Source of the DNA: Gemmatimonadales bacterium
GTDB taxonomy: Bacteria > Gemmatimonadota > Gemmatimonadetes > Gemmatimonadales > GWC2-71-9
Assembly (NCBI GenBank): GCA_036394755.1
Contig: DASWEL010000002.1
Coordinates: 73,166-137,165 of the forward strand
Direction: 5' to 3'
Length of the DNA: 64,000 nt
Position 1 is the stretch's first letter. Every line of letters begins with the position of its first letter. A model generated the notes under the pieces. The model saw only the letters and a list, made by a program, of their open reading frames with translations, was not told where the DNA came from and ran no database searches. The position numbers and the translations under genes were made by a program. Shown piece by piece: positions 3,467 to 58,705 of this stretch.

Positions 3467-3886
3467 TTACGGGGCGCTGCGTAGCTCCACGAGACGCCAC
3501 TCGCGGTCCAATAACCGATACCCGAGAAACAGGGTCTCATGACGCAATTCCGTCGTTCCGGCGACCACATAGCGGCGGGTTAACTCCACAAAGCCCTTCC
3601 CCGGCTCCACCTCGCGGATCGCCGTCACGTCGAGCCCTCGCTCCTCGGCGGGCCGAAAGTACCGGCGCAACAGCTCGATCGCCTGCGGCCGCCCCAGCGG
3701 GGACGACGGATCTGCGCCTGGAATCTGCAGGATCAGCGTCGAGCTTCGCCCCACCAGGCCCTGTGCGTCATGGGCGGACCATGCGGCTTTGGCCCGGGCC
3801 GCCGCATCGGACAGCGTTGCCTGAGCGGCGACCTGAACCGGCAGCGCGACCATGCAGAGCGACAGCCATAGCCGTGAAGTGTGCAT
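3467..3886 (-). CDS. Secreted hypothetical protein, NTF2/SnoaL-like by eye
   Basis: Signal peptide MHTSRLWLSLCMVALPVQVAAQA followed by ~115 aa; alternative TTG start at 3907 overlapping pyrF stop; family call tentative. Confidence 0.55.
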   Translation of the reverse strand: MHTSRLWLSLCMVALPVQVAAQATLSDAAARAKAAWSAHDAQGLVGRSSTLILQIPGADPSSPLGRPQAIELLRRYFRPAEERGLDVTAIREVEPGKGFVELTRRYVVAGTTELRHETLFLGYRLLDREWRLVELRSAP

Positions 3887-3903
3887 AGGGCTGGGTGATA
3901 CCC

Positions 3904-4584
3904 TCAATCGAGCGCTTCGACCAAACGGCGGTAGGCGGCGACCGGATCGCGCGCCGCCGTAATCGGCCGTCCGACCACGAGATGGGTCGCGCCGCGGTGC
4001 ACGGCTTCTGCCGGTTCGATCGTGCGCACCTGATCGCCGGCGGGGTCGCCGGGCGCGCGAACGCCCGGGACCACGATCACTGGCTCGGGGCCGAGTGCTT
4101 CCCGCAACAGGCCAAGCTCCCGGCCCGATGCGACGACGCCGCGCAATCCCGCCTGTAGCGCCGCGCGCGCCAGACGCTCCGCTTCAAATCCGACATCGGG
4201 AACGCCGCGTCCCAAAATGCCCTCGAGCTCGGCGCCATCATGCGAGGTCAGCACCGTCACACCAACGACCGCGAGGTCCTGCCCGGCCGCCGTGGCGGCA
4301 GCCGTCAGCATGGCGCGACCCCCGAGACAGTGGACCGTGGTCATCGACACGCCAAGCTCGCGCGCCGCACTCACGGCACTCGCCACAATGTGGGGAATGT
4401 CGTGCCACTTGAGATCGAGAAACACGCGAATGCCGCGCGCCGTGAATTCTCTGACGAGCGATGGCCCTTCGCGGTTGAACAGCACCGGGCCGACTTTGGC
4501 CCATCGCAGACCCGGCAGCCGCGCGGCGAGCGCCAGCGCCTCGCTCCCGCTCGGCAAATCGAAGGCGACGATCAGCTCAGCCAC
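3904..4584 (-). CDS. pyrF: Orotidine 5'-phosphate decarboxylase
   Basis: ...LIVAFDLP...WAKVGPVLF...RVFLDLKWHDIPHIVA... OMP decarboxylase motifs, 226 aa. Confidence 0.9.
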   Translation of the reverse strand: MAELIVAFDLPSGSEALALAARLPGLRWAKVGPVLFNREGPSLVREFTARGIRVFLDLKWHDIPHIVASAVSAARELGVSMTTVHCLGGRAMLTAAATAAGQDLAVVGVTVLTSHDGAELEGILGRGVPDVGFEAERLARAALQAGLRGVVASGRELGLLREALGPEPVIVVPGVRAPGDPAGDQVRTIEPAEAVHRGATHLVVGRPITAARDPVAAYRRLVEALD

Positions 4585-22191: not shown

Positions 22192-23243
22192 AACCCTTTG
22201 AACCAGAGCTTGTCAGCAGCCGGCGGATCGACGTAGACGCCGGGCAACGCGCTCTCGGCCAGCGGCAACGGCTCATCCACACACGCGTCCGTCGCCTGAT
22301 CCACTTCGACGCGCACGCGATCGTCGATGTCCTTCAGATCCGTCTCGGCGACCATGTCAGCGGCGAGCAGACGCTGCACGTAGCGATCGACGGGATCGTT
22401 CGCCTTCGCCCACTGCTCCAGCTCACCCTGCGGCACGTAGTGCTGATCGTCGTGCTCGGCGTGACCCTTGCGGCGATAGGTCTTCACCTCGACGAAGTGC
22501 ACCCCTTTGCCGCGGCGGGCACGCTCCACCGCAACCCGCGTCGCTTCGTAGACCGCGAACACGTCGTTGCCGTCCACCATCACCGACGGGACGCCATATC
22601 CCTTGGCCTTCTCAGCGAGGTCCTTCACGGCGAACTGCTTCGCGGGCGGCGTGGAGTACGCCCAATGGTTGTACTCGCCGATCACGACGAGCGGGAGCCG
22701 CTGGACGGCGGCGAGGTTCAGGCCCTCATGAAAGGTGCCGGTCGACGTGCCGCCGTCGCCGATGTACACGAGCCCGACGCGCGGCTCGGCGCGCAGCTTG
22801 AAGCTCAGCGCGATCCCCGCCATCACCGGGATCATGTCGCCCAGGTGCGAGATCTGGCCGAGGTAGCCCTTCTCGAGGTCGTTGAAATGGACGTTCAGCT
22901 CGCGGCCGCGGGTGGGGCTGTCGGCCTTGGCCATGTACTGCCGCAAGATCTCGACCGGCCGGGCTCCCATCACGAGCAGCGACCCGAGGTTGCGGATGAG
23001 CGGCGACAGTACGTCCTTGTGCCGGCCGCGCTCCAGCGCATACGCCGAGGCGACAGATTCCCCCTCTTGCCCCAGCGAACGGAACAGCCCGCCGATGACC
23101 TTGGTCTGGCGGTACAGCGCCACCAGGCGCTCTTCCAGCGTCCGGGTCAGCCGAAGATAGTAGTAGATCTCGAGAAGCTGGTCCGACGAGAGCACCGCCC
23201 CGGCGGGGATGGCGCCAGTCGGGCGCGTCGCAGGAAGAGCCAT
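22188..23243 (-). CDS. 2-oxo-acid dehydrogenase E1 alpha subunit (TPP-dependent)
   Basis: 351 aa; TPP motif ...YIGDGGTSTGTFHEGLNLAA...IGEYNHWAYSTP... Confidence 0.9.
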   Translation of the reverse strand: MALPATRPTGAIPAGAVLSSDQLLEIYYYLRLTRTLEERLVALYRQTKVIGGLFRSLGQEGESVASAYALERGRHKDVLSPLIRNLGSLLVMGARPVEILRQYMAKADSPTRGRELNVHFNDLEKGYLGQISHLGDMIPVMAGIALSFKLRAEPRVGLVYIGDGGTSTGTFHEGLNLAAVQRLPLVVIGEYNHWAYSTPPAKQFAVKDLAEKAKGYGVPSVMVDGNDVFAVYEATRVAVERARRGKGVHFVEVKTYRRKGHAEHDDQHYVPQGELEQWAKANDPVDRYVQRLLAADMVAETDLKDIDDRVRVEVDQATDACVDEPLPLAESALPGVYVDPPAADKLWFKGL

Positions 23244-23251
23244 GGCCCTAA

Positions 23252-23257
23252 ATTATA
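23252..23257 (-). promoter_or_regulatory. Perfect TATAAT -10 box 8 nt upstream of the E1-alpha ATG (possible leaderless transcript)
   Basis: Forward ATTATA (23252-23257) is TATAAT on the minus strand; spacer ttagggcc; ATG at 23243; no usable SD; overlaps TATAGT (23254-23259) facing copZ. Confidence 0.35.
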
Positions 23258-23274
23258 GTTGGGAGGGAAGAGCC

Positions 23275-23490
23275 ATGGCGAACGTGAAGCTGCGCGTGAC
23301 GGGAATGACCTGCGGCCACTGTCAGGCCAAGGTCGAGAAAGCGCTGAAGGGGGTGGTCGGTGTCTATAGCGCCGTCATCGACCTGCCCGACGGAGAAGCG
23401 GAAGTGGATTTCGATGATGACTCGGTGACGACGGATCAGCTCGTGGCGGCCGTCACGAAAGCCGGCTACGGCGCGAAGGTCGCGGGCTAG
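23275..23490 (+). CDS. copZ: Copper chaperone, HMA domain
   Basis: MANVKLRVTGMTCGHCQAKVEKAL...; GGGAGGG SD upstream of ATG 23275. Confidence 0.85.
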   Translation: MANVKLRVTGMTCGHCQAKVEKALKGVVGVYSAVIDLPDGEAEVDFDDDSVTTDQLVAAVTKAGYGAKVAG

Positions 23491-31969: not shown

Positions 31970-32275
31970 TTAGCGCGGTCTGATCGTTCCAGTCACCTCG
32001 GCGAGGACGCGGTAGCCCTCCAGACGAGCGGGAATTCTCCTTTTCGTATCGGCGCCCGAGTCGGCGAGAAACACTTTGATGCACCGTTCTCCGTCGCACA
32101 ACCCGATCGCGGTCCCCACGACGCCGGGGAGAGCCATGAGGGAATCGGTATGCGCGGCGAGAACCTCATCGATGCTCCTCGCAGTCACCGTGGCTGTCCC
32201 TCCCCCGCGCTGAGCACCGGAGCACGCGAGTGCCCCGGCCAGCAGTACCAACGCCAACGTGCGTGCTACCATCAC
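31970..32275 (-). CDS. Stand-alone protease-propeptide-like lipoprotein, 101 aa
   Basis: Lipobox LLAGALAC; HTDSLMALPGVVGTAIG...PARLEGYRVLAEVTGTI parallels residues ~85-140 of the upstream protease (HTDALLSIPGVVGTAVT...PGMLEGIPVTQRVTGRL); GTG overlaps protease stop (GTGA). Confidence 0.65.
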   Translation of the reverse strand: MMVARTLALVLLAGALACSGAQRGGGTATVTARSIDEVLAAHTDSLMALPGVVGTAIGLCDGERCIKVFLADSGADTKRRIPARLEGYRVLAEVTGTIRPR

Positions 32276-35200
32276 TGACGCTTCACCGTAACCGAGAAGC
32301 CGTTGCTGCTGCCATCCGGATCATGATTGAGAGCTGACTTGTACACGTACCCCGACAGGGTGAGTGCGGTCACCCCGAACGAGACCATCTTGGTTGAGTT
32401 CGGAAGGTTCGACAGGACGACGCTACACGTTCCCGTCGGACCGGTTACGCACCCCACCTCCGGATTGGATCCGTTCCAGAGGCCGCGCACGCTCGCGCCG
32501 TTCACGAGATTATGCCGGGAATCATGCACGGTAATCTTCACCGTCGCCGACCAGTTGTTCCCGTTGCTCGTGGCAACACCATCGAGATTGCCCACGTGGA
32601 GGTTCGGCGGGTTCACGGTGATGGCGATGGCGCGCGCGTCGTTGCTCGAATTGTTGTCCGCCAGCTTCTGCGTCGCCGTCAGGATGTGACCGTTCGTCGC
32701 GACCCCGGCGGTGTTCCAGTTGATAGTGCGTGTCACGCTCGCACCCGCGCCAATCCCGGTGATCGTCTGCGTTCCAACGGTGATGCCTCCCGCTGTGCCG
32801 TCGGTCAACACAACGTCGAAGCTGGTGCTCACATCCACCCCGCCCAGGTTCTGCACCGTGACCACAACCGGCGCCGTATCGCCCTGCGTCACCTGGGCGG
32901 GCCCCGTGATGGCGGTCAACGCGAGATCGACCGGCTGCGGATTCACGGTGACCGTCGTCGAGCGCTGGTTGTTGGCGCTGTTGTCATCCGTAAAGGTCTG
33001 GGTCGCCACGACCGTGTGACCGCCCAGCGCCGCGCCCGTGGTGCTCCAGCTGAATGAGGGCGTAGCTGTCGCACCGATAGCCAACCCGGTGATGGTTTGC
33101 GTGCCAATCGTCACGCCTGCGGTGGCGTCGGTGAGCACGACGTTGAAACTGCTCGTGACGTTCTGGCCGCCCACGTTCTGAACCGTGACTTGGGCCGTGG
33201 CCGAATTGCCTTGAATCACCGAGCTCGGCGCGCTCACGTCGGTCACGGCGACGTCGATGACCGGGGCGTTCACGGTGACCGTCGCTCCGCCCTGATTGTT
33301 GGCGGCGTTGGCGTCGCTCAAACTGTGGGTCGCCACGAGCCGGTGACCACCCAATGCGGCGCCCGTCGTATTCCAGTTGAACGTGCGAGTCGCGGTGGCG
33401 CCGACGGCGAGCCCAGCCACCGTCTGTGTACCGAGCGTTACGCCTGCCGTCGAGTCGGTCAGGACAACATCAAAGCTGCTGCTGACGTTCAAGCCACCCA
33501 CGTTTTGGACCGTAACCCCAATGGAAGCGGTACTGCCCTGGGTCACCGCGCTCGGCGCAACGACGCTGCTCACGGCGACATCGGTGATTGGCGGGGCCTC
33601 CACAATCACACTGATGCCGACGGTGTTGTTCGCAGGATCGCTATCGGCGAGCCTCACCGACGCGAACAGCGTGTGCCCGGTGACAGCGGCGCCGGCGGTG
33701 TTCCAATCGAACGTACGCGTCACGCTCGCACCCACGGCGAGCCCGGCGATCGTCTGCGTGCCCAGGATCGGACCGCTGAATCCGTCGGTCAACACCACGT
33801 CGAAGTTGGTCGTAACGTCCTGCCCACCGACGTTCTTTACCGTGACCACGATATGTGCGGTATCGCCCTGGTTCACGCGCGCGGGGCCGGTGATGCCCGT
33901 AATGGCGACGTCGGTCCCCGGAGGCGGCGGCGGGGGCGGGGGCGGCGGACCCGGTGGCCCCGGGGCCGTCACGTTGATCGCGATCCCGATGCTGTTGTTC
34001 GAGGAGTTGTCGTCCGGCAGCTTGTTGTTCGCGAAGAGGGTGTGCCCGGTGACAGTCGCTCCGGCGGTGTTCCACAGCATCTCTACCGTGGTCGTCGCCC
34101 CGGCGGCGAGGCTGGGAACTGTCGCCGTCGCGACTACCGGGACGGCCCACCCGTCGCTCAGCTCGATGGTGAAGGGTGAAGTGACATCCACCTCACCCAC
34201 GTTCTGGACCGTGACCACCACGTGCGCCGTATCGCCCTGGGCCACGGAGCGCGGCCCGGTAATACCGGTCACCGCGATATCGAGCGGCTTGGGCGTGATC
34301 GTGACGACGGTGGTGCGCCGATTGTTGGCGGCGTTGTCGTCGGCCAGGGCGTGCGTGGCGACGAGCGTGTGCCCGCCCAGCGCCGCGCCGGTCGTGTTCC
34401 AGCTGAAGACGAGCGTCGTGCTGGTACCTGCGGCGAGCCCGTGGATTGTCTGCGTGCCCAGTGTGACACCGGCGGTCGAGTCCTGCAGGGTGACAGGGAT
34501 GTCACCCGTGACGTTCTGATTGCCGACGTTCGTGACAGTCACGCCGACATTTACGTTGTGCCCGACGATTACCGAGCCGGCTCCACTGAAACTCGTTACC
34601 GCGACGTCGGTGACCGGCGGGTTGACCGTGATCGTCACGAAACGCTGGTCGTTCGTGGCTCTGTCATCGGACCGCGTCTGACGTGCCACCAGGTCGTGAT
34701 CGCCCGTCGTGCCCGGCGTCCAGGAGAATGTCACGGTGGTGCTGGCGCCCGCGACGAGCCCGGAGACGCTCTGCGTGCCGACCGTCACGTGCTCCGTCGT
34801 GTCCTGCAATGTGACGTCGAAGGCGGAGACGTCCTGGTTGCCGACGTTTTTCACGGAGACCGTGACGCTCGACGTACCGCCCTGCACCGCTGAGCTGGGA
34901 CCACTGACGCTCGTCACGGCCAGGTCGGTCAGCGGTCCCGGCGGCGGCGGCGCAAAGCCGTCGATCACGACGCCGAAGCGTTGGAGCACGAGATCGATCC
35001 GGTTGGCGATCGTGACGCTCGCATTGCCGGCGAACAGCAACGCGACGGGGTTGAGATTCGCGTCGTCGGTCACGATGAGCGAGCCCGAGTCTCCGCCGTT
35101 GCTGAACCCGCCCGGCGAGATGATCAACTGGTCCACATAGCGGGCGGTCTTCGTGCACGTGAATCCCGAAACCGCATAGCAGATCGTGACCGTCGCGTTG

Positions 35201-36027
35201 ATGCCCGTGATCTGGCCGTGTGTCAGCCGCGTAGTGCGGCCGTACTTCTGGACGTTCAGGCTGAGCAGCGCGTTGCGGTCATCGAACAATCCGTCACCGT
35301 TCGCGTCGCCGAAGATCGTCGAGTTCGGCGTGCTGTAGCCGTCGTCGGCGGGCGTCGCGTTGTCCAGCACGGCGGTCGTGGAGAGGGCGATGGCGGCATC
35401 GATGGTGTTGGTGCCGTTGGCGGCGAACGAAATAACCTGAAAGTCACTGAGGGTCGCGATCTGATCGGCGGCGGTACCCCCATCAAATGGACCCGGCTGG
35501 TACTCGGGATCGCCGATGCTGGCACCATTCGAGTTGGCGAGGACGTGATTGTTCGAGAGGATGTACACCCGTCCCAGCGCGTCACGCACGCGCGCGCCGA
35601 TCGTACCGGCGGTGATCGCCGGATGTCCCACCGAGAAACCCATGGGCGCGGGGCGCTGGCGCTGCGTGGGATCGCTGAGGGCCATGAGCCGGCCGGTGAC
35701 CCGTTGCGTCACGGGGATCCCCTCGAGCATGCCGGGGAGGCCGGCTATGCCGGCGCGCTCCAGCAGGAGCAGCAGGCCCGGATGTCCGTCGGGATCCACG
35801 GTCACCGCAGTTCCGACGACCCCGGGGATCGAAAGCAACGCGTCGGTGTGATGCCGTTGTGCCGTGATCGCCGCGCGGAGATCGGGAATGAGACGCGTGA
35901 CTGGGAGCGCGGGACCCGCGGGAGAATTCGAAGCGCTGTCGGAGCACGCGTACCAGACGGCGGGCGCGGCAGCAATCAGGACGACGATGGCACCGCGAAC
36001 GAACGCGCGGACGGAGGGTGCAGCCAT
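32272..36027 (-). CDS. Secreted S1 (chymotrypsin-fold) serine protease with pro-domain, seven CARDB-like repeats and a C-terminal beta domain
   Basis: Lipoprotein signal ...AAPAVWYAC; triad contexts YILSNNHVLA, NTIDAAIA, NGGDSGSLIV; 7 x ~108-aa repeats; poly-Pro linker; ATG 36027 has GGGAG 5 nt upstream (track start 36105 is less likely). Confidence 0.85.
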   Translation of the reverse strand: MAAPSVRAFVRGAIVVLIAAAPAVWYACSDSASNSPAGPALPVTRLIPDLRAAITAQRHHTDALLSIPGVVGTAVTVDPDGHPGLLLLLERAGIAGLPGMLEGIPVTQRVTGRLMALSDPTQRQRPAPMGFSVGHPAITAGTIGARVRDALGRVYILSNNHVLANSNGASIGDPEYQPGPFDGGTAADQIATLSDFQVISFAANGTNTIDAAIALSTTAVLDNATPADDGYSTPNSTIFGDANGDGLFDDRNALLSLNVQKYGRTTRLTHGQITGINATVTICYAVSGFTCTKTARYVDQLIISPGGFSNGGDSGSLIVTDDANLNPVALLFAGNASVTIANRIDLVLQRFGVVIDGFAPPPPGPLTDLAVTSVSGPSSAVQGGTSSVTVSVKNVGNQDVSAFDVTLQDTTEHVTVGTQSVSGLVAGASTTVTFSWTPGTTGDHDLVARQTRSDDRATNDQRFVTITVNPPVTDVAVTSFSGAGSVIVGHNVNVGVTVTNVGNQNVTGDIPVTLQDSTAGVTLGTQTIHGLAAGTSTTLVFSWNTTGAALGGHTLVATHALADDNAANNRRTTVVTITPKPLDIAVTGITGPRSVAQGDTAHVVVTVQNVGEVDVTSPFTIELSDGWAVPVVATATVPSLAAGATTTVEMLWNTAGATVTGHTLFANNKLPDDNSSNNSIGIAINVTAPGPPGPPPPPPPPPPGTDVAITGITGPARVNQGDTAHIVVTVKNVGGQDVTTNFDVVLTDGFSGPILGTQTIAGLAVGASVTRTFDWNTAGAAVTGHTLFASVRLADSDPANNTVGISVIVEAPPITDVAVSSVVAPSAVTQGSTASIGVTVQNVGGLNVSSSFDVVLTDSTAGVTLGTQTVAGLAVGATATRTFNWNTTGAALGGHRLVATHSLSDANAANNQGGATVTVNAPVIDVAVTDVSAPSSVIQGNSATAQVTVQNVGGQNVTSSFNVVLTDATAGVTIGTQTITGLAIGATATPSFSWSTTGAALGGHTVVATQTFTDDNSANNQRSTTVTVNPQPVDLALTAITGPAQVTQGDTAPVVVTVQNLGGVDVSTSFDVVLTDGTAGGITVGTQTITGIGAGASVTRTINWNTAGVATNGHILTATQKLADNNSSNDARAIAITVNPPNLHVGNLDGVATSNGNNWSATVKITVHDSRHNLVNGASVRGLWNGSNPEVGCVTGPTGTCSVVLSNLPNSTKMVSFGVTALTLSGYVYKSALNHDPDGSSNGFSVTVKRQ
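32605..34932 (-). repeat. Seven tandem ~324-bp coding repeats (CARDB-like Ig domains) inside the protease gene
   Basis: Each unit reads ...TDVAVTxxxxPxxVxQGxxxxxxVTVxNVGxxxV...LTDxTAGVTLGTQTxxGLAxGAxxTxxFxWNTxGAxxGxHxLxA...; interrupted by PGPPGPPPPPPPPPPG encoded near 33915-33965. Confidence 0.8.
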
Positions 36028-36121
36028 AGCGACTCCCGGTTGAATCCCAAGGGCGCGGGCGCGGGCACCAACAATGGAGGCGCCCGACCGACTCGGCAAG
36101 CTCAACCTGAGACGCGCAGCT

Positions 36122-36799
36122 CTAAGTCTCCTTGTTCGAGGATGTTATCCGTGCGGCAAGAGCTTCCATTTGCCGCTCCCGCAACCGCGCCCAGCGCGGC
36201 AGCCGGAGTGCGCCGCTCGCAATCATTCCGGCACCTGCTGCAGCCATCAGCGCGATGCCAGGAATCGCTTCGCCCAACGTACCCCAGACGGCACCCGAAA
36301 TGACCAGGACGGCGGTGATGCCGAGGACGGCGATTCCCGCACCGATCGAGGCGCGCGCGCCGCCATGCAGGGTCCCGAAGCGCAAGCGGTGACCAGTTTC
36401 GGTTGGCTCGAGCAGCACCTGCAGGTTTCCGTTCGTCCACTGCCGCAGCGAGCCCTCGGAACGCGTGCGGCCGCGCGCGTTGAAAACTTCACGCAATTGG
36501 ACGACGAGACGCTCCCACTCCTCATCGGTGAGCCGTCGGTTGAGATTGACGGTCCGGGCCACGCCGATGGGCAGTCCCAGGAACGTCCGCGACGCCGCGC
36601 CGAAACGCACATCGACGGCTCGAGCAGCTTGGGCGACCGCATCGGAAGGAATGCCGACCTCGCTGCCGATCGCCTGGAGCTCGGCGAGCGTCAACCCTTC
36701 GTCGCGCGCGACCTCGCGCTGCGGACTCTGAGGCCCTTCTTCCGCGGCCGCGCGAAAGATCGCCGCGATCTCTTTGTCGTTGTAGCGTCGCTCGGCCAT
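36122..36799 (-). CDS. Hypothetical membrane protein, 225 aa
   Basis: Soluble N-terminal ~150 aa, then two Gly/Ala-rich TM helices; no family recognised. Confidence 0.6.
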   Translation of the reverse strand: MAERRYNDKEIAAIFRAAAEEGPQSPQREVARDEGLTLAELQAIGSEVGIPSDAVAQAARAVDVRFGAASRTFLGLPIGVARTVNLNRRLTDEEWERLVVQLREVFNARGRTRSEGSLRQWTNGNLQVLLEPTETGHRLRFGTLHGGARASIGAGIAVLGITAVLVISGAVWGTLGEAIPGIALMAAAGAGMIASGALRLPRWARLRERQMEALAARITSSNKET

Positions 36800-36808
36800 G
36801 GCTCTAAT

Positions 36809-38041
36809 CTAGTAAATCAGGTGTTTTGTACGAGTCTCGCGAAATCGCTCCAGGTCACCATCCCACGAATTCCAGATTTCCCGCGCCTGCCGGCCCGCCT
36901 CGAGCGCCATGCGGAGCTCCGGCCCGGCTGCCAGCCGATCGAAGCTCTGCGCGCGAAACTGAAACTCGTCGGGATGCGCCGCCCGAATCGCGACGAGCAG
37001 GGCGACCGCGAGTTTCGTGGGGTCGTAGACCTGACGATCGCGGACCCGCAGCTCGATTCCCTTCAACGCCACGCCGGCGTACTTGCCATCGGTCGGCGCG
37101 ATTGGAGTGAAGCGCGTCGCTCGCACCTCCACTCCGTGAAGCGCCGAGCTGTCGAGACGCGCGATCACACGGTCCGGATCGAGCCACGGCGCACCCAGCA
37201 CGCGAAACGCCGTCGCCGTACCGCGACCAACCGACACATTCGTCCCTTCGAACAAACAGGTACCGGGATAGAGCAACGCGCTCTCGATGTCGGGCATGTT
37301 GGGCGACGGTTTCACCCACGGGAGACCCGTCTGATCGTAGAACAGCGTGCGATTCCACCCCAGCGCGGGCACGACGACAAGATCGGTGCCGATGGCTAAG
37401 GCATCGTTGGCCAAGCGCGCCAGCTCGCCGAGTGTCATGCCATAGCGCATCGCGACAGGCATGAAACCGGAGAAGAGGGAATCGGGATCGCCGGCGCGCC
37501 CGCGCACGTTGCCCTGCACCGCGGTCCCGCCGACGGGATCGGGGCGGTCGAGGACGACGACCCGTTTTCCCGCACGCGTTGCATCGCGCATGAACTGCAC
37601 GGTGGTGGCGATGTAGGTGTAGTAGCGCGCGCCAATGTCCTGCAGGTCGATGAGGAGCACGTCGACCGAATCGACCGCGGCGCGCGCGGCGGTACGCGAT
37701 CCGCCATAGAGACTGTAGATTGGGAGACCGCTGGCGGAGTCCCTGCCGTCCGGAAGTCCCGAGCGATCTTCCGTGCCGCGAAAGCCGTGCTCGGGACTGA
37801 ATAAGACGGTAAGTCGTGCGTCGTGCGTCGTGCGTAACAGATCGACGTCGCGGCGGCCGAGATGATCGACGCCGGTGTTGTTCGTCAGCAGACCGAGTCG
37901 CTTGCCGGCGATGAGGTGTGCCGAATCCGAGAGCAGGACCTCGATGCCGGGCCGAACCTGGGCCGCGAGGGGTGATGGGACGCGTGTTCCGCTGGAACAG
38001 CCAATCCCCAACCCGATCCAAACGAGACGATGCGCGCGCAT
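36809..38041 (-). CDS. namZ: DUF1343 / NamZ-like exo-beta-N-acetylmuramidase lipoprotein
   Basis: MRAHRLVWIGLGIGCSS lipobox; ...GIEVLL...GKRLGLLTNNTGVD...LFSPEHGFRGT... DUF1343 hallmarks; the upstream 289 codons of the 699-aa track ORF are antisense to the GH3 gene. Confidence 0.8.
   Translation of the reverse strand: MRAHRLVWIGLGIGCSSGTRVPSPLAAQVRPGIEVLLSDSAHLIAGKRLGLLTNNTGVDHLGRRDVDLLRTTHDARLTVLFSPEHGFRGTEDRSGLPDGRDSASGLPIYSLYGGSRTAARAAVDSVDVLLIDLQDIGARYYTYIATTVQFMRDATRAGKRVVVLDRPDPVGGTAVQGNVRGRAGDPDSLFSGFMPVAMRYGMTLGELARLANDALAIGTDLVVVPALGWNRTLFYDQTGLPWVKPSPNMPDIESALLYPGTCLFEGTNVSVGRGTATAFRVLGAPWLDPDRVIARLDSSALHGVEVRATRFTPIAPTDGKYAGVALKGIELRVRDRQVYDPTKLAVALLVAIRAAHPDEFQFRAQSFDRLAAGPELRMALEAGRQAREIWNSWDGDLERFRETRTKHLIY
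37813..37835. repeat. Tandem heptamer GTCGTGC x3 (same unit as at 15807)
   Basis: gtcgtgc gtcgtgc gtcgtgc gt inside namZ. Confidence 0.9.
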
Positions 38042-39781
38042 AGACTCCTGATCGTTGCGATGCTGGCCGCCTGTGGCGGACCACGGGTTGTTGGACCGAC
38101 GCCGCAGCCGGCCGTCGATGCCGTCCTCAGCAAACTGACCCAGCGCCAGAAGGTCGCGCAACTCGTGGTGCCGTGGCTGGGCGGAAACTACATGGCGCTG
38201 GACGATTCCGCCTTCCAGATCGCGACGCGCTGGGTCGATTCGCTCGAGGTCGGCGGCATCATCATCTCCGTCGGCTCGCCCTACGACATCGCCGCGAAGC
38301 TCAACACGCTGCAGCGCCGTTCCAAACTGCCGCTCCTCGTTTCCGCGGATCTCGAGTGGGGCGCCGCGATGCGCGTGATCGGCGCCACCGCATTTCCCTA
38401 CATCATGGCCGCCGGCGCGACCGGTGACCAGCGCGACGCGTACACGATCGGCCGGGTCGCCGCGCGCGAGGGACGCGCCGTCGGCATCCACGTGAATTTC
38501 GCGCCCGATGCGGACGTCAACAACAACCCGCTCAATCCCATCATCAACACCCGCTCGTTCGGCGAGGACCCGCGCGCCGTGGCGCGGCTGGTGCGCGGCT
38601 ACGTGCGCGGCCTGCAGGACAACGGCATGCTCGCCACGCTGAAACACTTCCCGGGCCATGGCGACACGGATGCGGACTCGCACATCGGTCTGCCCGCGAT
38701 CCGCGTCGACTATGCCCGGCTCGACTCCGTCGAACTCGTGCCGTTCCGCGCCGGCATCGACGCCGGTGCGCAGGTCGTCATGAGCGCCCACATCGCCTTC
38801 CCCGCATTCACGGGTGAGACACCCGCGACGCTGTCCGCGGCGATGCTGACCGGTGTGCTGCGCGATTCGCTCAAGTTCAAAGGGCTGGTCGTGACCGACG
38901 CGCTCCAAATGGGCGCCATCGTCGCCAGGTACGGCGCCGGCGAGGCGGCGGTGCGTGCGTTCGAGGCGGGGTCGGACCTGTTGCTCATGCCGGCCGATCC
39001 CGATTCGGCGATCGGGTCGATGCTGGTCGCCTTGCGGACAGGACGCCTCACGACCGCGCGACTGGACGCCTCCGTGCGGCGCGTGCTCGAGATCAAGCGC
39101 GGGCTCGGCCTCTTCGAGCGCCGCACCGTGCCGCTCGACTCGATCGCGCGCATCGTCGGCTCGAAGTCATTCCAGGATGCCGCGGACGACATCGCGCAAC
39201 GGTCCCTGACACTCGTCCGGGATACGACCGGCATCGTCGCGTGGCTGCGCGGCGCGCGCAGCCGGATGGCCATCATCGCGTACGGCGACGAGCTGAACAG
39301 CTATGTCGGGCAGCGCATGCTCGAGCTCATGCGCGCCGGCGGTGACACGGTTGGCTTCTTCCGGCTCTGGCCGATGTCGGGGACCGCGTCGTACGACTCG
39401 GCGCGCGTCGTGATCGGGCGGGCGCCCACGGTGATCTTTGCGATGAACGTGCGACCGATCGCGGCGAAGGGCAGCATCGCACTGCCTGATTCCCTCGCGC
39501 GGCTGATCACGATGACCGACTCGGTGAAGCCGACCGTCCTCGTCTCGTTGGGCAGCCCCTATCTGCTGAACCAGACGCCGACTGTGAAGTCGTATCTGAT
39601 CGCCTGGAGCGGCGTGCGCACGGCGGAGAAGGCCGCCGCGCGCGCGCTGCTCGGCTGGTCGCCCGTGCGCGGCAAGCTGCCGATTCGGATTCCCCCCTCC
39701 TACCCCATCGGCTACGGGCTCACGGTGTCCGACTCGACGCTGCCGCCGGTGAGACCGCCGGCGCACGTCATCATGCCGTGA
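38030..39781 (+). CDS. nagZ: GH3 beta-N-acetylhexosaminidase lipoprotein (NagZ/YbbD-like, two-domain)
   Basis: MRAHRLLIVAMLAAC lipobox; ...KHFPGHGDTDADSH...; 583 aa. Confidence 0.85.
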   Translation: MRAHRLLIVAMLAACGGPRVVGPTPQPAVDAVLSKLTQRQKVAQLVVPWLGGNYMALDDSAFQIATRWVDSLEVGGIIISVGSPYDIAAKLNTLQRRSKLPLLVSADLEWGAAMRVIGATAFPYIMAAGATGDQRDAYTIGRVAAREGRAVGIHVNFAPDADVNNNPLNPIINTRSFGEDPRAVARLVRGYVRGLQDNGMLATLKHFPGHGDTDADSHIGLPAIRVDYARLDSVELVPFRAGIDAGAQVVMSAHIAFPAFTGETPATLSAAMLTGVLRDSLKFKGLVVTDALQMGAIVARYGAGEAAVRAFEAGSDLLLMPADPDSAIGSMLVALRTGRLTTARLDASVRRVLEIKRGLGLFERRTVPLDSIARIVGSKSFQDAADDIAQRSLTLVRDTTGIVAWLRGARSRMAIIAYGDELNSYVGQRMLELMRAGGDTVGFFRLWPMSGTASYDSARVVIGRAPTVIFAMNVRPIAAKGSIALPDSLARLITMTDSVKPTVLVSLGSPYLLNQTPTVKSYLIAWSGVRTAEKAAARALLGWSPVRGKLPIRIPPSYPIGYGLTVSDSTLPPVRPPAHVIMP

Positions 39782-40917
39782 TGCGTCGGCTGCTTTGGCT
39801 CAGCGGCGCGCTGCTGCCGTTGGGTTGCACACATCCGCAGCCAGTACCGACGATCACGACGCAGCAGTCGTACGGTCGCTTCGAGCCGGTCGTCGCGTAT
39901 TTGCGGTCGCAGGTGGATAGCGCGTTTCCGGGAGCCACAATTGCCGTGGGCTATGGCGACAGCGTCGTCCTGCTCGCGGCGGTTGGTCACTACGGCGCGG
40001 ATGATCCCCGGCCCGTTACACCGGAAACGATCTACGATCTTGCCTCACTCACGAAAGTCATCGGGCTCACCACCGCAGCGATGATGCTCGTCGACCAGGG
40101 CAAACTCGACCTCGACGCCCCGGTGCAACGCTACGTCCCAGCCTTTCAGGGAACCAACAAAGAACGCGTCACGATCAAACACCTGCTCACGCACTCCTCC
40201 GGCATGCCGGCGTGGCGACCGCTGTACGCCGAAGCGAAGACGCGCGAGGAAGCGCTCGCGCTGGTCGATACGACAGCGCTGCTGAAACAACCCGGCGACA
40301 CGTTTGTCTACTCCGACCTGGGCGCGATCACGTTGACGCAGGCCGTGGAAGCGATCACTGGACAGCGCCTCAATGACTTTCTGGACGCGCGGCTATTCGG
40401 GCCGCTCGGAATGACATCGACCGGATTCCTGCCCCCCCAGAGTTGGTGGGACCGCATCGCACCGACCGAGAATGACACGGTTTTCCGACATCGATTGTTG
40501 CGGGGCGAGGTGCATGACGAGAATGCCGGACGCCTAGGGGGTGTCTCCGGCCATGCGGGGCTGTTCAGCACGGCACCCGATTTGGCTGTGTTTGCAGAGT
40601 GGCTACTGCGCTTGAGAAGAATCGATTCGCTGCACGTACGGGACTTCAGCCACAGGCAAGGCATTCCTGCCGGCTCTTCCCGCGCCCTCGGCTGGGACAC
40701 CCCCTCCGAACTCTCGAGCGCCGGAACGAAGATGGGGCCGAACGCATTCGGGCATACCGGCTTCACCGGGACGTCCATCTGGTTCGACCCCGACCGCAAC
40801 CTCTTCATTATTCTGCTGACGAACCGCGTGAACCCGACCCGCGCCAACACGAAGATCCTTCAGGTGCGCCGGCGCGTCGCCGATCTCGTCAACGACGCGC
40901 TCACTCCACCACAGTAG
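39778..40917 (+). CDS. Beta-lactamase-fold serine hydrolase lipoprotein (AmiE/YbbE-like candidate MurNAc-L-Ala amidase)
   Basis: Lipobox LPLGC; S-x-x-K motif DLASLTKVIG; start overlaps nagZ stop. Confidence 0.7.
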   Translation: MMRRLLWLSGALLPLGCTHPQPVPTITTQQSYGRFEPVVAYLRSQVDSAFPGATIAVGYGDSVVLLAAVGHYGADDPRPVTPETIYDLASLTKVIGLTTAAMMLVDQGKLDLDAPVQRYVPAFQGTNKERVTIKHLLTHSSGMPAWRPLYAEAKTREEALALVDTTALLKQPGDTFVYSDLGAITLTQAVEAITGQRLNDFLDARLFGPLGMTSTGFLPPQSWWDRIAPTENDTVFRHRLLRGEVHDENAGRLGGVSGHAGLFSTAPDLAVFAEWLLRLRRIDSLHVRDFSHRQGIPAGSSRALGWDTPSELSSAGTKMGPNAFGHTGFTGTSIWFDPDRNLFIILLTNRVNPTRANTKILQVRRRVADLVNDALTPPQ

Positions 40918-55383: not shown

Positions 55384-55995
55384 CTAGGGATGCCGCTCCC
55401 CGCGCGCCAGCGGCGCCTCCCCACGGAACGCGAGCAGACCACGCATGACCGGCCTCCCGCCGCTGAGGAAGGCGGTGGGACCGATCACTATGGCGAAGTG
55501 CGGGGCGTTGCCGCTGCCCACGCTGAACGCCGGGAGCACCGAGACCCCCACCCATCGGGATCCCAGCGACATCGGCGAGCCGGCAGCAGTGTAGCCGCTG
55601 AGCTCGAAGGTCAGGTCGAACCCAATCCCGGTGCCGTGCTCATCGGCTCCGAACTGCGCGATGGACTTCATGCGTGTCCGGGCGGACAGTGTCGCCGCGA
55701 ACACAGCGCCCTTCTGACCACCCAGCACGGCGCTCTCGTTCATGAATGTGCCCACGCGAGCAGCGAGCCCCAGCGCGGCGAAGCCACGCGAGGGCCGGCG
55801 CACGTAACCGATCTCGGCTGATTCGATCTGCCAGTATGCACCGAGCGTCGCTACGAACCCGAAGCTAATGGCGTGCCGGCGCACTTTGGTCGATTGCGCG
55901 CTATCCGATTGCGGGGTATTCGATTGCGCGGCGAGCGTCGTAGACAAAGCTGCCAGGGCAACCAACATTGATACGATGGACCGTCGCACGTTCAT
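55384..55995 (-). CDS. Hypothetical secreted beta-rich (small OMP-like) protein
   Basis: Signal peptide MNVRRSIVSMLVALAALSTTLAAQ; the upstream 120 codons of the track ORF are antisense to the neighbouring gene. Confidence 0.55.
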   Translation of the reverse strand: MNVRRSIVSMLVALAALSTTLAAQSNTPQSDSAQSTKVRRHAISFGFVATLGAYWQIESAEIGYVRRPSRGFAALGLAARVGTFMNESAVLGGQKGAVFAATLSARTRMKSIAQFGADEHGTGIGFDLTFELSGYTAAGSPMSLGSRWVGVSVLPAFSVGSGNAPHFAIVIGPTAFLSGGRPVMRGLLAFRGEAPLARGERHP

Positions 55996-58705
55996 GCTCC
56001 TGACTGGTGCGGCCGCTGTACTGCCCGTCGGGCGCCCTCGCCCGCTGCGAGCGCTCGGCAACCTGCGCTTCGATCTCGACGACCAGCGTCGCCTGTCGCT
56101 GTGGTACAACGGTCCCGATCGGTCCGTCCCGTTGCTGCGAAACGCAGCACTGGGCGTTTGGATCGGCGATACACTCGCCACCCTGGCTGACTTGGAAGAC
56201 GTCAGCGTGGGGAACCGCCGCCCACCCGGCGGCGAGTCCCTTGTGATCCGGGGACGAACCCCGGCTCCGGCAGGTGCCGCATCCGGCAGCGTTTGGATCG
56301 AGGCAGAGTTCTTTGCTCTGGACTCTGTTGCTCGCGGCGCGATCACCGTCAGCATCTATCCCGATCGCGTGCTTGCTACGATCCGCGGTATACGGTTCTT
56401 CGCAACTTCCGAGCCAGACTTCCTTCCCGGTCTTCCGGGTGACGGACCTCTCATTGCCCTCGTGAGCGGCTACCAGTCGTGGAGCGCGTGCCACGTAGCT
56501 TCGCTGCCTGCAGACGCGACTGGCTTTGGCGCGATCGGCGTAACTCGTGCAGGACGCGGCTTCGCCGCTGTGTGGGACCCCGGTGAGGCTGGGGAAGGCA
56601 AAGTGAGGCTTGCCGCTGATGGGAAGCTGGAGGCAGTCAGCGAATGGTCGCCCGCCCGTCCTGTGCGACCGGACGGCGACGTCGCGACGTTGCGGCTTGC
56701 CTACATGCCTGCGGGCGACGGCCTGGGGGCGCTGACCGCCGCCGCAACACCTCCGTCGTCCGTGGACCGCGAACGTGTCGCGGCGCTGTCGGTTCCCACC
56801 GGGTGGTCTTCGTGGTACGAACTCGGTGCCGATGTGACCGAAGGCGATATGCTGGCGAATATCGGCTTCTGCGGCGTGCACTTCGACCGCCGCTTCTTTC
56901 GCTACATCCTGCTCGACGACGGCTATCAGCGCGCCGCGGGCGATTGGGATACGAACAGCAAGTTTCCCCATGGCCACCGGTGGCTGACCGATCGCGTGCA
57001 TGCCGCGGGCTTTCAGGCAGGCCTGTGGGTGGCGCCCTTCGCGGTCGCCGAGCAATCGGACATCGCGAGAGCGAATCCATCCTGGCTCCTCAAGGGGCCC
57101 CTCCCGGCGCCCGACGGGACTCCCCTTGTCGTGGATACGCGCGAGCGTTGGGGCGGCCGGATTGTCGCCCTCGATGGCGCGCACCCCGGCGTCCAGCAAT
57201 GGCTGTACGATCTCGCACGCCGCGTCGTGCGCGACTGGGGCTACGACTATCTCAAGATCGATTTTCTCGAATGGGCGACAGGCGGCGTGACCCACTACGG
57301 CGGCCTGACCCGCGCCGAAGCCTACCGCGGCGGACTCACTGCGCTGCGCGCAGGACTTGGCACGGAGGCCTTTCTGCTCGGGTGTGGGGCGCCATTGCAG
57401 CATGCGGCCGGCCTGGTGGACGGAATGCGGATCGGCGACGACGTGGACGCGAGCTGGAACGGCATTCAATCACCGGCGCGGGCTACGGCGCTGCGCAGCT
57501 TCTATCACCGATCCGTCTGGCTCAACGACCCCGATTGCCTTGTCGTGCGGCCGCCCCTCACTCTCGAGGAAGCGCGCGTGTGGGCCTCCGTGGTCGCGAT
57601 GTCTGGAGGGATGAGCATCTTCTCGGACAATCTTCCCAAGCTGCCGGCTGAGCGGTTGCCAATTTTGCAGAAGACAATTCCCGTCGCCGCCCAGACGACG
57701 ACTCCGGCGCGTCCCGCTGGAACGCAGAGTGACGAGCCCGAGATTGCCCCGGCGATCACCGCCGGCAAGACGATCGTCCGTCTGCGTGGGCCGTGGCGTC
57801 TTCGTACGGGCGACGACGTACGATACGGGTCACGCGACTACGATGACGAAACGTGGGAGATGATCGCTGTCCCGCTGACCTGGGAGCAATCCGGTCATCC
57901 CGACTACGATGGCTCGGCCTGGTATCGCACACACTTCACCGTGCCGTCCGCCCCCACCCCTCCCGACGAGGTGCGGCTCGATCTCGGCAAGGTGGATGAT
58001 GTCGACGAGACATTCATCAACGGCATCAAGGTCGGGGGCACCAGCGGCTGGCGCAGCTACCGCCAATACGCCGTCCCGGCGGCCGCGCTCAACTGGGGCG
58101 GGGACAATGTTCTTGCCGTGCACGTCACCGATACCGGTGGTCCCGGAGGGCTGTGGAGCGTCACACGCGACCGGCCGGCATCCACATGGATTGTCGAAGG
58201 CGCTCCCCGCTGGTGGACGCTCGCGCTGGTGAATTGGGAGGAAGAGCCGCGCACCGTTGTGCAGAGCCTGGCGGCGTTGGGGATTGCCGGTACCCGCTTT
58301 GTCGTCTACGACGTCTGGGCAGAGCGGCCGATGACTGATGTCTCACAGACACTCGGCGCCACGATAGCGCCACACTCCGCCCTGGTCGTGGCATTGCGGC
58401 CAAGTGTCACGCGGCCGCAGATCATCGGCTCGACGCGGCACGTCGTGCAGGGCACGATCGACATTCGCGAGGACCGGTGGGACGTCAGGACGCGCACGCT
58501 CTACGCGAAGTCGGTGAATCTCGACGGCCGCCCATACGCCGTCACCATCGCGGTCCCTCGCGGAATGCGCGTCAGAGCGTGCAAGTCAGACGTCGCATGC
58601 ACGGTGAAGCGGCTCGCCAGCGGACACGGCGTGGTGGAATGGCCGGCCGGGACTGGGGCGGATGTCGAGTGGTCCGTGACCTTCAGATCGAGCGCGAGGC
58701 GCTAG
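55976..58705 (+). CDS. Tat-secreted alpha-galactosidase-like glycoside hydrolase (clan GH-D) with C-terminal GH2-type sugar-binding jelly-roll
   Basis: MDRRTFMLLTGAAAV twin-arginine signal; ...ILLDDGYQRAAGDWD...YDYLKIDFLE...RIGDDV...WLNDPDCLVV...; C-terminal ...WEMIAVPLTWEQSGHPDYDGSAWYRTHF... Confidence 0.75.
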   Translation: MDRRTFMLLTGAAAVLPVGRPRPLRALGNLRFDLDDQRRLSLWYNGPDRSVPLLRNAALGVWIGDTLATLADLEDVSVGNRRPPGGESLVIRGRTPAPAGAASGSVWIEAEFFALDSVARGAITVSIYPDRVLATIRGIRFFATSEPDFLPGLPGDGPLIALVSGYQSWSACHVASLPADATGFGAIGVTRAGRGFAAVWDPGEAGEGKVRLAADGKLEAVSEWSPARPVRPDGDVATLRLAYMPAGDGLGALTAAATPPSSVDRERVAALSVPTGWSSWYELGADVTEGDMLANIGFCGVHFDRRFFRYILLDDGYQRAAGDWDTNSKFPHGHRWLTDRVHAAGFQAGLWVAPFAVAEQSDIARANPSWLLKGPLPAPDGTPLVVDTRERWGGRIVALDGAHPGVQQWLYDLARRVVRDWGYDYLKIDFLEWATGGVTHYGGLTRAEAYRGGLTALRAGLGTEAFLLGCGAPLQHAAGLVDGMRIGDDVDASWNGIQSPARATALRSFYHRSVWLNDPDCLVVRPPLTLEEARVWASVVAMSGGMSIFSDNLPKLPAERLPILQKTIPVAAQTTTPARPAGTQSDEPEIAPAITAGKTIVRLRGPWRLRTGDDVRYGSRDYDDETWEMIAVPLTWEQSGHPDYDGSAWYRTHFTVPSAPTPPDEVRLDLGKVDDVDETFINGIKVGGTSGWRSYRQYAVPAAALNWGGDNVLAVHVTDTGGPGGLWSVTRDRPASTWIVEGAPRWWTLALVNWEEEPRTVVQSLAALGIAGTRFVVYDVWAERPMTDVSQTLGATIAPHSALVVALRPSVTRPQIIGSTRHVVQGTIDIREDRWDVRTRTLYAKSVNLDGRPYAVTIAVPRGMRVRACKSDVACTVKRLASGHGVVEWPAGTGADVEWSVTFRSSARR

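Follow-up and report, generated by a model that had tools for sequence, protein, structure and literature searches.

The window analysed here is a 64,000-nucleotide stretch (GC content 65.8%) of contig DASWEL010000002.1 from a Gemmatimonadales bacterium. It contains two divergent genes, namZ and a GH3 (NagZ-like) exo-glycosidase gene, whose coding regions share their first 12 nucleotides, ATGCGCGCGCAT, head to head (Table 1). A preliminary description of this DNA had placed the starts of two divergent lipoprotein genes of one pathway within a shared 12-bp palindrome, and sequence, Pfam matches and signal peptides all agreed with this arrangement. Both Pfam domains of NamZ scored above threshold (NamZ_N, PF07075, E 7.7e-66, 221.8 bits against a cutoff of 26.9; NamZ_C, PF20732, E 2.9e-47, 161.7 bits against a cutoff of 25), which places this predicted enzyme in the NamZ/DUF1343 family. 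Homologues of both proteins number in the thousands, and entry P0001 is 100% identical to the window NamZ over 410 amino acids and is the same protein as HEX9346046.1.

The GH3 protein scored below the NagZ equivalog cutoff of NCBIfam (NF003740, 155 bits against 207), although this was still its best-scoring model. Members of its cluster carry the JGI name beta-N-acetylhexosaminidase, and like B. subtilis NagZ it is a two-domain protein; the label NagZ-like is therefore a reasonable one for a protein whose specificity is predicted. Peptidoglycan is degraded from its non-reducing end in the order NagZ, AmiE, NamZ, and the three enzymes are encoded in one co-regulated operon in B. subtilis (PMC8054146). 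An AmiE/PBP4B-like serine hydrolase gene follows the GH3 gene in the window and encodes a protein of beta-lactamase fold, to which AmiE also belongs; its top NCBIfam model was PBP4B, at 144 bits and under that model's cutoff. With this gene in place the earlier assignment of both enzymes to the same pathway was upheld, and treating the GH3, AmiE-like and NamZ proteins as one pathway is sound, the GH3 score under the NagZ cutoff notwithstanding.

Table 1. Positions of the features discussed, in window coordinates or, where a locus number is given, in the coordinates of that locus
Feature	Position	Strand	Remarks
Shared start overlap	38030..38041	both	codes for Met1-Arg2-Ala3-His4 in GH3 and NamZ alike
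GH3 (NagZ-like) exo-glycosidase gene	38030..39781	+	583 aa, lipoprotein precursor; PF00933, E 2e-84; HEX9346047.1
namZ (DUF1343, exo-beta-N-acetylmuramidase family)	36809..38041	-	410 aa, lipoprotein precursor; HEX9346046.1
GH3 signal peptide	38030..38074	+	MRAHR-LLIVAM-LAAC; lipobox L-A-A-C, Cys15; fits the strict pattern
NamZ signal peptide	37997..38041	-	MRAHR-LVWIGL-GIGC; ends G-I-G-C, Cys15; relaxed (PROSITE-type) lipobox pattern only, Gly at -3
AGGAG, Shine-Dalgarno-like	38045..38049	-	3 nt 5' of the namZ ATG; from GH3 Leu6-Leu7 (CTC CTG)
GAG, weakly Shine-Dalgarno-like	38024..38026	+	-6 to -4 of the GH3 ATG; from NamZ Leu6 (CTC); followed by A at -3
TAGATT, candidate GH3 -10 box	37716..37721	+	NamZ codons 107-109; 38/38; predicted transcription start ~37728, leader ~300 nt
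TAGTTT, candidate namZ -10 box	38185..38190	-	GH3 codons 52-54; 34/38; predicted transcription start ~38178, leader ~137 nt
Predicted bidirectionally transcribed region	37728..38178	both	from the two candidate promoters; ~450 bp
AmiE/PBP4B-like serine hydrolase gene	39778..40917	+	4-nt overlap with the GH3 stop (same operon); Pfam Beta-lactamase, E 2.2e-69
225-aa open reading frame	36122..36799	-	9 nt 3' of namZ, same strand; possibly co-transcribed
TPR gene in cassette lineages	L016 2048-3201; L017 2855-3995; L021 2818-3986; L033 2830-3998		~380 aa, own signal peptide
TA(G/A/C)nTT-N6-ATG of namZ in lineages without the overlap	L016 3189-3200; L017 3983-3994; L021 3974-3985; L023 3983-3994; L033 3986-3997		

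The encoded N-termini are MRAHRLLIVAMLAAC for GH3 and MRAHRLVWIGLGIGC for NamZ, and, as previously described, both begin MRAH, continue with RL and run into a lipobox. An in-frame stop that ends at 37975 closes the GH3 frame upstream, and 38030 is the earliest start codon beyond it; further in, the frame has only CTG 38048 and ATG 38060 as candidates, the latter leaving 4 residues before the lipobox Cys. Upstream of its ATG the NamZ frame offers CTG codons only, and the next downstream start, TTG 38011, also leaves 4 residues before the Cys. Lipoboxes were assigned by pattern matching, the strict pattern being [LVI][ASTVI][GAS]C at about residues 15-25, after a charged n-region and a hydrophobic h-region. 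Both proteins have the features of lipoprotein signal peptides by this approach, NamZ by the relaxed pattern.

Among relatives, the first GH3 Cys lies at position 15 in 35 of 44, where downstream alternative starts would leave at most 11 residues (mostly 0-7) before it, and a NamZ Cys near position 15 is likewise conserved (LGIGC, LGLGC, GLAC and similar). Most relatives have no Met at the position of GH3 M11 (ATG 38060), which bears out the earlier judgement that it is no viable start, and several species have stops within a few codons upstream of the starts. On this comparative basis both ATGs are shown to serve as start codons: they are invariant across species, upstream stops or a lack of alternatives leave no other choice, and they are the sole starts that give a signal peptide before the lipobox Cys. 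Lipoprotein signal peptides are cleaved before this Cys, so that N-terminal sequencing of the mature proteins is uninformative on the start site.

Conservation of the overlap in Gemmatimonadales

To follow the junction across the order, 80 species-level Gemmatimonadales loci (numbered with the prefix L) were retrieved via NamZ, and the GH3 gene was adjacent and divergent in 65 of these. The cultured, Gemmatimonadaceae-like loci in the set have no GH3 gene next to namZ. Starts overlapped in 54 of the 65, spread over dozens of soil species, and 45 had the 12-nt geometry of the window, giving 46 such junctions with the window included. The most diverged of them (L076) retained only 47% identity in NamZ and 41% in GH3. 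Five loci had a 15-nt overlap (L018, L041, L049, L052 and L061), and overlaps of 9 nt (L055, ATGGCGCAT), 6 nt (L056, GTGCAC) and 18 nt (L063) were each seen once; L066 can be read either as abutting CAT and ATG or as a 12-nt overlap with a GTG start. Overlap length was a multiple of 3 in every overlapping locus, as expected from a single overlapping ancestor, because an indel inside the overlap falls in both reading frames. Once formed, an overlap of this kind would be locked in, since only indels that are multiples of 3 would preserve both frames.

The ATG and CAT were invariant in all 46 junctions with the 12-nt geometry, and the surrounding signal-peptide codons and the central hexamer varied. 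On the NamZ tree, the overlap state spanned both deep branches and the crown. Comparative sequence evidence thus gave what is expected of a true divergent overlapping pair, namely two coding reading frames, two used starts and conservation in independent genomes, and we regard the overlap as confirmed to be real, ancient and maintained. Comparison of the junction in relatives had been proposed in the preliminary description, with lack of conservation as the outcome that would tell against it; the overlap proved to be deeply conserved. In 15 of 44 loci with the 12-nt geometry (e.g. L011, at 4013-4015, L020 and L043), NamZ residue 5 is His (CAT), which places an extra GH3 ATG one codon upstream; the overlap in these loci could be 15 nt (GH3 beginning MMRAH) instead of 12. 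Two further loci (L047, ~3855-4012, and L054, ~3903-4012) have an intact junction and namZ start with a GH3 frame that is broken soon after its ATG, which could reflect a frameshift, an assembly error or a pseudogene.

The palindrome is shown to be a by-product of double coding and not a signal. In the antiparallel in-phase register of the two genes, first codon positions in each lie opposite third codon positions in the other, so that the partner's ATG is read as CAT and supplies His4 in both proteins. The complement of CGC, the codon for Arg2, is GCG and supplies Ala3, and ATG-CGC-GCG-CAT results on both strands. Arg2 belongs to the positively charged n-region of the signal peptide, which is required at the extreme N-terminus, and CGC is the preferred Arg codon (57%). 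Asymmetric centres with the overlap kept were found in relatives, including CGCCTG (MRLH/MQAH), CGAACG, CGCCCG, CGCTGG, CGTCCG and the ATGGCG lineages. The window holds 39 perfect 12-nt palindromes against about 27 in shuffled sequence; that at the junction is the sole one of the form ATG...CAT, and its exact string was expected 0.05 times. An RNA hairpin over the start codons was considered and rejected, as it forms but is no more stable than shuffled controls (z = -0.46 and -0.56 on the two strands). The significance that had earlier been attached to the palindrome itself was accordingly not sustained: several lineages have lost it and kept the overlap, it follows from Met-Arg on both strands, and its hairpin is unremarkable. 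As a separate observation, the 12-mer alternates purine and pyrimidine throughout, with (CG)4 flanked by AT; Z-DNA under the negative supercoiling of divergent transcription is possible in principle and was set aside, as the alternation is not conserved in relatives.

Candidate expression signals within the partner's codons

Constraint on silent sites was measured by threading codons onto the protein alignments of 38 full-length pairs and computing third-position entropy at conserved four-fold codons. Baseline entropy was 1.26 ± 0.34 bits in NamZ and 1.08 ± 0.34 in GH3, and entropies below 0.2 bits were seen in none of 134 control codons of NamZ and in 1.6% of 257 in GH3. Leu6 of NamZ was nonetheless CTC in 32 of 32 sequences (0.00 bits) and Leu6 of GH3 was CTC in 35 of 36 (0.18 bits). 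The third base of either Leu6 codon lies outside the overlap, so its freezing is not explained by the partner's protein. Codon 5 was also unusual in both genes, being AGA, AAA or ACA in GH3 (AGA makes up 1.0% of Arg codons) and CGT or CAT in NamZ (CGT, 7.5% of Arg codons). Beyond codon 7, silent sites varied normally in both genes, which confines the constraint to about 8 nt around each ATG.

Read on the opposite strand, these codons spell Shine-Dalgarno (SD)-like strings. Before namZ, the sequence AGGAG-TCT-ATG was kept with each base present in 43-45 of 46 junctions, the TCT being supplied by GH3 Arg5 (AGA), and where the GH3 Leu7 codon changed it went to the rare CTA or CTT, so that AGGAG was preserved. 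Before GH3, (A)nGAG-A(C/T)G-ATG is spelled, its A at -3 coming from NamZ Arg5 (CGT) or His5 (CAT), with position +15 being T in 42 of 46. The lineages with a 15-nt overlap carry other, still SD-like strings at the same place (AAGGA for namZ, GAGGG for GH3), and a 3-nt spacer is found elsewhere in the window, in GGAGG-ccc-ATG at 42655. Statistics of SD and -10 spacing over all open reading frames of the 80 loci were abandoned because they were dominated by the same few homologous genes, and were replaced by a gene-by-gene reading of the window.

We infer from these patterns, strongly for namZ and weakly for GH3, that the first signal-peptide codons of each protein double as the ribosome-binding region of the partner. 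In the proposed mechanism, GH3 Arg5-Leu6-Leu7 (AGA CTC CTG) would give AGGAG-TCT before namZ, and NamZ Arg5-Leu6 (CGT CTC) would give GAG-ACG before GH3, each start being served by a site written in the first codons of the other gene. Such embedded SD-like elements would imply that both mRNAs are leadered (at least 8 nt), with leaders antisense to the 5' coding end of the partner. The unequal rare codons at position 5 might in addition keep the GC-rich palindrome from extending into a long hairpin over the start sites, since with CGC as codon 5 of both genes the stem across the two starts would be 18 nt long, fully paired and GC-rich.

Lineages without the overlap served as a natural control: GH3 and namZ are separated by a TPR-repeat gene, co-directional with GH3, in L016, L017, L021 and L033, and by simple gaps of 103 nt in L023 and 73 nt in L032. 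On the NamZ tree these gap and cassette lineages are interspersed with ones carrying the 12-nt overlap, from which it seems that the whole junction, including both signal peptides, was exchanged as a cassette by recombination. Their GH3 genes have a canonical GGAGGAG 10-12 nt before the ATG. Their namZ genes (L016, L017, L021, L023 and L033) have no SD, and instead TAGTTT, TAGGTT, TAATTT, TAGCTT or TACGTT exactly 6 nt before the ATG (Table 1). This TAnnTT-N6-ATG pattern appears to be a leaderless-mRNA signature, and namZ would then switch between leadered and leaderless expression by junction type. As AGGAG is absent from the cassette lineages, it goes with the overlapping layout, not with namZ itself. 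An apparent 15-nt head-to-head overlap of the TPR gene with namZ in L017 (MESVH against MNRFH) was dismissed as a coincidence, because comparison of the four loci puts the TPR start further in; with the likely start, the TPR-namZ gaps are 18-36 nt in L016, L017, L021 and L033.

For promoters, both whole coding sequences were scanned on both strands for conserved A/T-rich hexamers. Each gene gave one conserved match, a TAnnTT on its antisense strand (Table 1); no other pattern with four fixed A/T positions was conserved in either coding sequence on either strand. Both boxes depend on rare codons. CCA, which accounts for 6.5% of Pro codons, encodes Pro107 of NamZ in 38 of 38 sequences, and this position has the strongest A/T bias among 142 conserved four-fold codons; Gly52 of GH3 is GGA in 34 of 38 (GGA, 11% of Gly codons) and is the most A/T-biased of 249. 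The GH3-internal box persists despite Asn, Ser and Thr changes at codon 53, because every codon used there begins with A. Per locus one box was found, at -149 to -185 in the namZ direction (about 0.25 expected by composition) and at -290 to -341 in the GH3 direction (about 0.35 expected); those of the window lie at -149 and -314, respectively. The next most A/T-biased conserved NamZ codons (110 and 114) adjoin Pro107. We also noted that the top three A/T-biased four-fold NamZ codons (Pro107 CCA, Ser110 AGT and Gly114 GGA) and Tyr112 TAT fall within 24 nt (37700-37723), and that codons 107-114 form on the opposite strand an A/T-enriched patch, TCCGCCATAGAGACTGTAGATTGG, which reaches upstream of the TAGATT box.

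Of 48 main-clade overlap loci, 41 contain the GH3-internal box, against 1 of the 6 main-clade loci with a gap or cassette, in which namZ has a putative promoter of its own (p = 0.0013 by Fisher's test with no phylogenetic correction); L022, which has lost it, has TATTTT 30 nt away. The CCA of the NamZ-internal box is kept across the main clade, cassette lineages included, and is replaced by CCG or CCC outside it. Its retention in the cassette lineages fits a role in GH3 expression, because the TPR-GH3 unit has at most 36 nt of upstream space there. Boxes of the TATAAT type are in use elsewhere in the genome, at the 23243/23275 gene pair. Conservation upstream of the TAnnTT boxes is explained by the encoded protein motifs. 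A search of the putative leaders for Rfam families returned none, with one chance-level match (18 bits against a gathering score of 40). Whether promoters do lie inside the partner's coding sequence at these single conserved boxes is, in our estimate, an even bet. If the two candidates are right, about 450 nt of mutually complementary 5' RNA would be made by convergent transcription; the smallest shared region supported by the sequence is the 12-nt coding overlap with the SD-like elements (38024-38049). The preliminary description had reasoned that the leader and promoter of each gene must lie inside, and antisense to, the other gene, and this expectation is backed by the frozen AGGAG and GAG sites and by the one conserved antisense TAnnTT box per gene, insofar as these are signals.

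Competing explanations and known systems

Taken together, we favour, with a probability of roughly 0.7, a genuine ancient overlap in which the palindrome is a by-product, ribosome-binding signals are embedded in the partner's codons and candidate promoters lie inside the partner's coding sequence. A number of points weigh against this reading. The transcription start sites, the leaders and the use of both ATGs are deduced from sequence for uncultured organisms, and kinship among the species makes the counts and Fisher tests overstate independence. Even by the standards of this genome the 3-nt spacer between AGGAG and ATG is short, and GAG makes a very weak SD for GH3. For the TAnnTT boxes, no convincing -35 partner of sigma-70, extended -10, extracytoplasmic-function-like, sigma-54-like or Bacteroidetes -33 TTTG type was found, and a consensus scan of 37500-38500 gave no canonical sigma-70 promoter. 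Seven main-clade overlap loci lack the GH3-internal box and the cassette locus L033 keeps it; cassette lineages may, moreover, have imported their codons by recombination and not by relaxed selection. Lastly, the frozen CTC, CCA and GGA codons could have another nucleotide-level role.

The suspicion that only one ATG is real, with the other gene starting downstream and the overlap an annotation artefact, draws on surveys in which every divergent overlap of more than 60 bp was a start-codon misannotation (PMC2478687) and on the shorter forms that Prodigal-type pipelines call (GH3, 573 amino acids; NamZ, 375 or 400). NCBI annotation of the 150-kb source contig carries both products at full length under consecutive accessions (Table 1), and public collections hold forms lacking the signal peptide: P0047 and P0057 (375 amino acids, VLTDS...), P0027 (400 amino acids, LGIGC...) and P0121 (573 amino acids, GH3 M11). 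Prodigal forbids 5'-5' overlaps by rule (PMC2848648), and these truncated entries are the expected product of that rule, cut through the signal peptides so that they begin LGIGC or VLTDS, and would be mis-predicted as cytoplasmic or non-secreted. With GH3 M11 absent from most relatives, both ATGs kept in 46 of 46 junctions and upstream stops within a few codons in several species, an artefact is the least credible of the explanations considered. Nearly as hard to credit is that both mRNAs are leaderless, their first nucleotide being the A of the ATG and their -10 boxes lying 6-8 nt upstream, in the partner's first codons. Leaderless starts have precedents in TAATTT-N6-ATG at 23243 and in namZ itself in the cassette lineages, and SD use in Gemmatimonadetes is reported to be low (PMC10783764). 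Positions -12 to -7 read GATCAG for namZ and CCAAAC for GH3 in the overlap lineages, however, with the key -7 T of namZ being G in 44 of 46; neither ATG has a conserved TAnnnT within 100 nt, and at neither, in the window or the overlap lineages, did TAnnnT stand 6-8 nt upstream with an SD missing. A conserved AGGAG would also be purposeless on a leaderless mRNA.

Symmetry at the junction extends over 24 nt (GAGnnnATGCGCGCGCATnnnCTC) and might instead mark the operator of a dimeric repressor that covers both starts and shuts both genes, the flanks being conserved for protein binding. The conservation is indeed symmetric, silent sites at both Leu6 codons included, and joint control would benefit genes of one pathway (PMC8054146). 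Yet the symmetry of the central hexamer is lost in many lineages that keep the overlap, and the half-site spacing shifts with overlaps of 6, 9, 15 and 18 nt while the purine-rich SD-like strings stay tied to each ATG; in the 15-nt lineages the flanks differ and are still SD-like (AAGGA, GAGGG). Symmetry and spacing are therefore not conserved independently of coding among the overlap lineages. No regulator gene adjoins, the neighbours being a PBP4B-like hydrolase, a symporter and a membrane-type open reading frame of no known family, and we consider an operator improbable. Somewhat better placed, though still unlikely, is a neutral frozen accident, in which a deletion or start-codon shift fused the 5' ends and double coding hinders reversal with no consequence for expression. 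Length variants that are in-frame only, repeated replacement of the junction by a TPR-gene cassette or a gap with neither gene lost, and the unremarkable hairpin are all in keeping with it. Purifying selection on Leu6 CTC in both genes, on codon 5 AGA/CGT and on one box deep in each gene is not; selected silent sites imply that the arrangement draws on signals within the partner and has come to rely on them. This alternative overlaps the lock-in part of the favoured reading, and an overlap that brings no regulatory benefit of itself stays compatible with selected silent sites.

A stronger form of the favoured reading, a reciprocal interlocked unit stable since early Gemmatimonadales, with ribosome-binding sites in partner codons, promoter boxes held by rare codons and about 450 bp of antisense transcription coupling both enzymes, is in our estimate less likely than not. 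As the enzymes cooperate, coupled or co-limited expression via promoter occlusion, collision or RNA-duplex processing would be likely, and an on/off exclusion switch between namZ and GH3 less so. If true, the unit would be a case of natural co-regulation, not exclusion, by reciprocal antisense transcription through overlapping coding 5' ends, and the coupling would serve two enzymes that have to work in alternation on one glycan chain.

Among gene overlaps, the head-to-head coding type is the rarest and is usually dismissed as start-codon error; its scarcity is commonly attributed to initiation signals being unable to occupy the same DNA as coding sequence. The locus is a counter-example with strong comparative support, in which signal-peptide codons of the partner would carry the ribosome-binding sites and rare codons maintain the candidate promoter boxes. 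The locus would also be useful as a test bed for convergent transcription across two start codons of cooperating enzymes. There is in addition an annotation blind spot, in that Prodigal, the annotator of most metagenome-assembled genomes, beheads one signal peptide in each such pair. Divergent overlaps numbered 331 of about 15,000 in 58 genomes (Lillo & Krakauer 2007, PMC2174442) and made up 1% in a later survey (Palleja et al. 2008, PMC2478687). Those catalogued in phase 123:321 resemble this locus in being short and on opposite strands, with shared 5' coding ends and pairing of codon positions 1 and 3. They are rare, largely unvalidated and often start-codon errors, whereas here the starts are pinned by signal peptides and conserved order-wide, the length has evolved in steps of 3 only, and the partner's ribosome-binding signals are apparent in silent sites.

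The closest analogue is S. aureus tagG/tagH, a divergent pair of one cell-envelope pathway with promoters beyond each other's start, whose long overlapping 5' untranslated regions undergo RNase III processing and have been suggested as a means of co-regulating the two genes (2012, PMC3386247). The tagG and tagH coding regions are apart, and their transcription start sites and cleavage have been mapped; in the window there is a 12-nt coding overlap, and the promoters are predicted to lie inside the partner's open reading frame. The preliminary description had foreseen excludon-like mutual interference or shared control. As in an excludon, the mRNA of one gene would be antisense to its divergent neighbour, but the label is a poor fit: an excludon involves an unusually long antisense RNA with a one-way effect on divergent neighbours of opposing functions (Wurtzel et al. 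2012, PMC3377988), whereas the relation here would be reciprocal, the antisense overlap is predicted and the enzymes cooperate. In the murQ-murR-murP-amiE-nagZ-namZ operon of B. subtilis, genes for secreted exo-acting enzymes of the same three kinds (NagZ, AmiE-like and NamZ) are clustered for joint expression (Mueller et al. 2021, PMC8054146). All of them run in one direction there, whereas in the window namZ stands apart and diverges from nagZ-amiE, its start overlapping that of the nagZ-like gene. Synonymous codon choice in E. coli has been shown to create antisense promoters that act on the divergent upstream gene (PNAS 2024, PMC11388325), so that silent codons deep in an open reading frame likewise yield antisense transcription toward a divergent neighbour. 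The effects described in that study were engineered or incidental in E. coli constructs, whereas the boxes described here appear to have been naturally selected as the neighbour's promoter.

Other features of the window

Downstream of namZ on the same strand, the 225-amino acid open reading frame had no match in Pfam or NCBIfam. Beyond it, the minus strand of 32272-36105 encodes a protein of about 1250-1280 amino acids that contains seven CARDB repeats as well as eleven consecutive prolines.

A second head-to-head overlap in the window, between 55384-56355 on the minus strand and 55868/55994-58705 on the plus strand, was rejected as a candidate, the minus-strand frame having no family match and being probably a shadow open reading frame. 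It comprises 323 codons with gene-like GC content at third codon positions (GC3), and overlaps, in antisense, the 5' portion of a large glycosidase gene.

At 23241-23277, an E1 dehydrogenase gene (minus strand, ATG 23243) and an HMA-domain gene (plus strand, ATG 23275) are 31 nt apart. A symmetric stretch, AACTATAATTT/AAATTATAGTT, is common to both and looks like a bidirectional -10 region. The minus-strand gene would be near-leaderless (TAATTT-N6-ATG), and the plus-strand gene has GGGAGGG.

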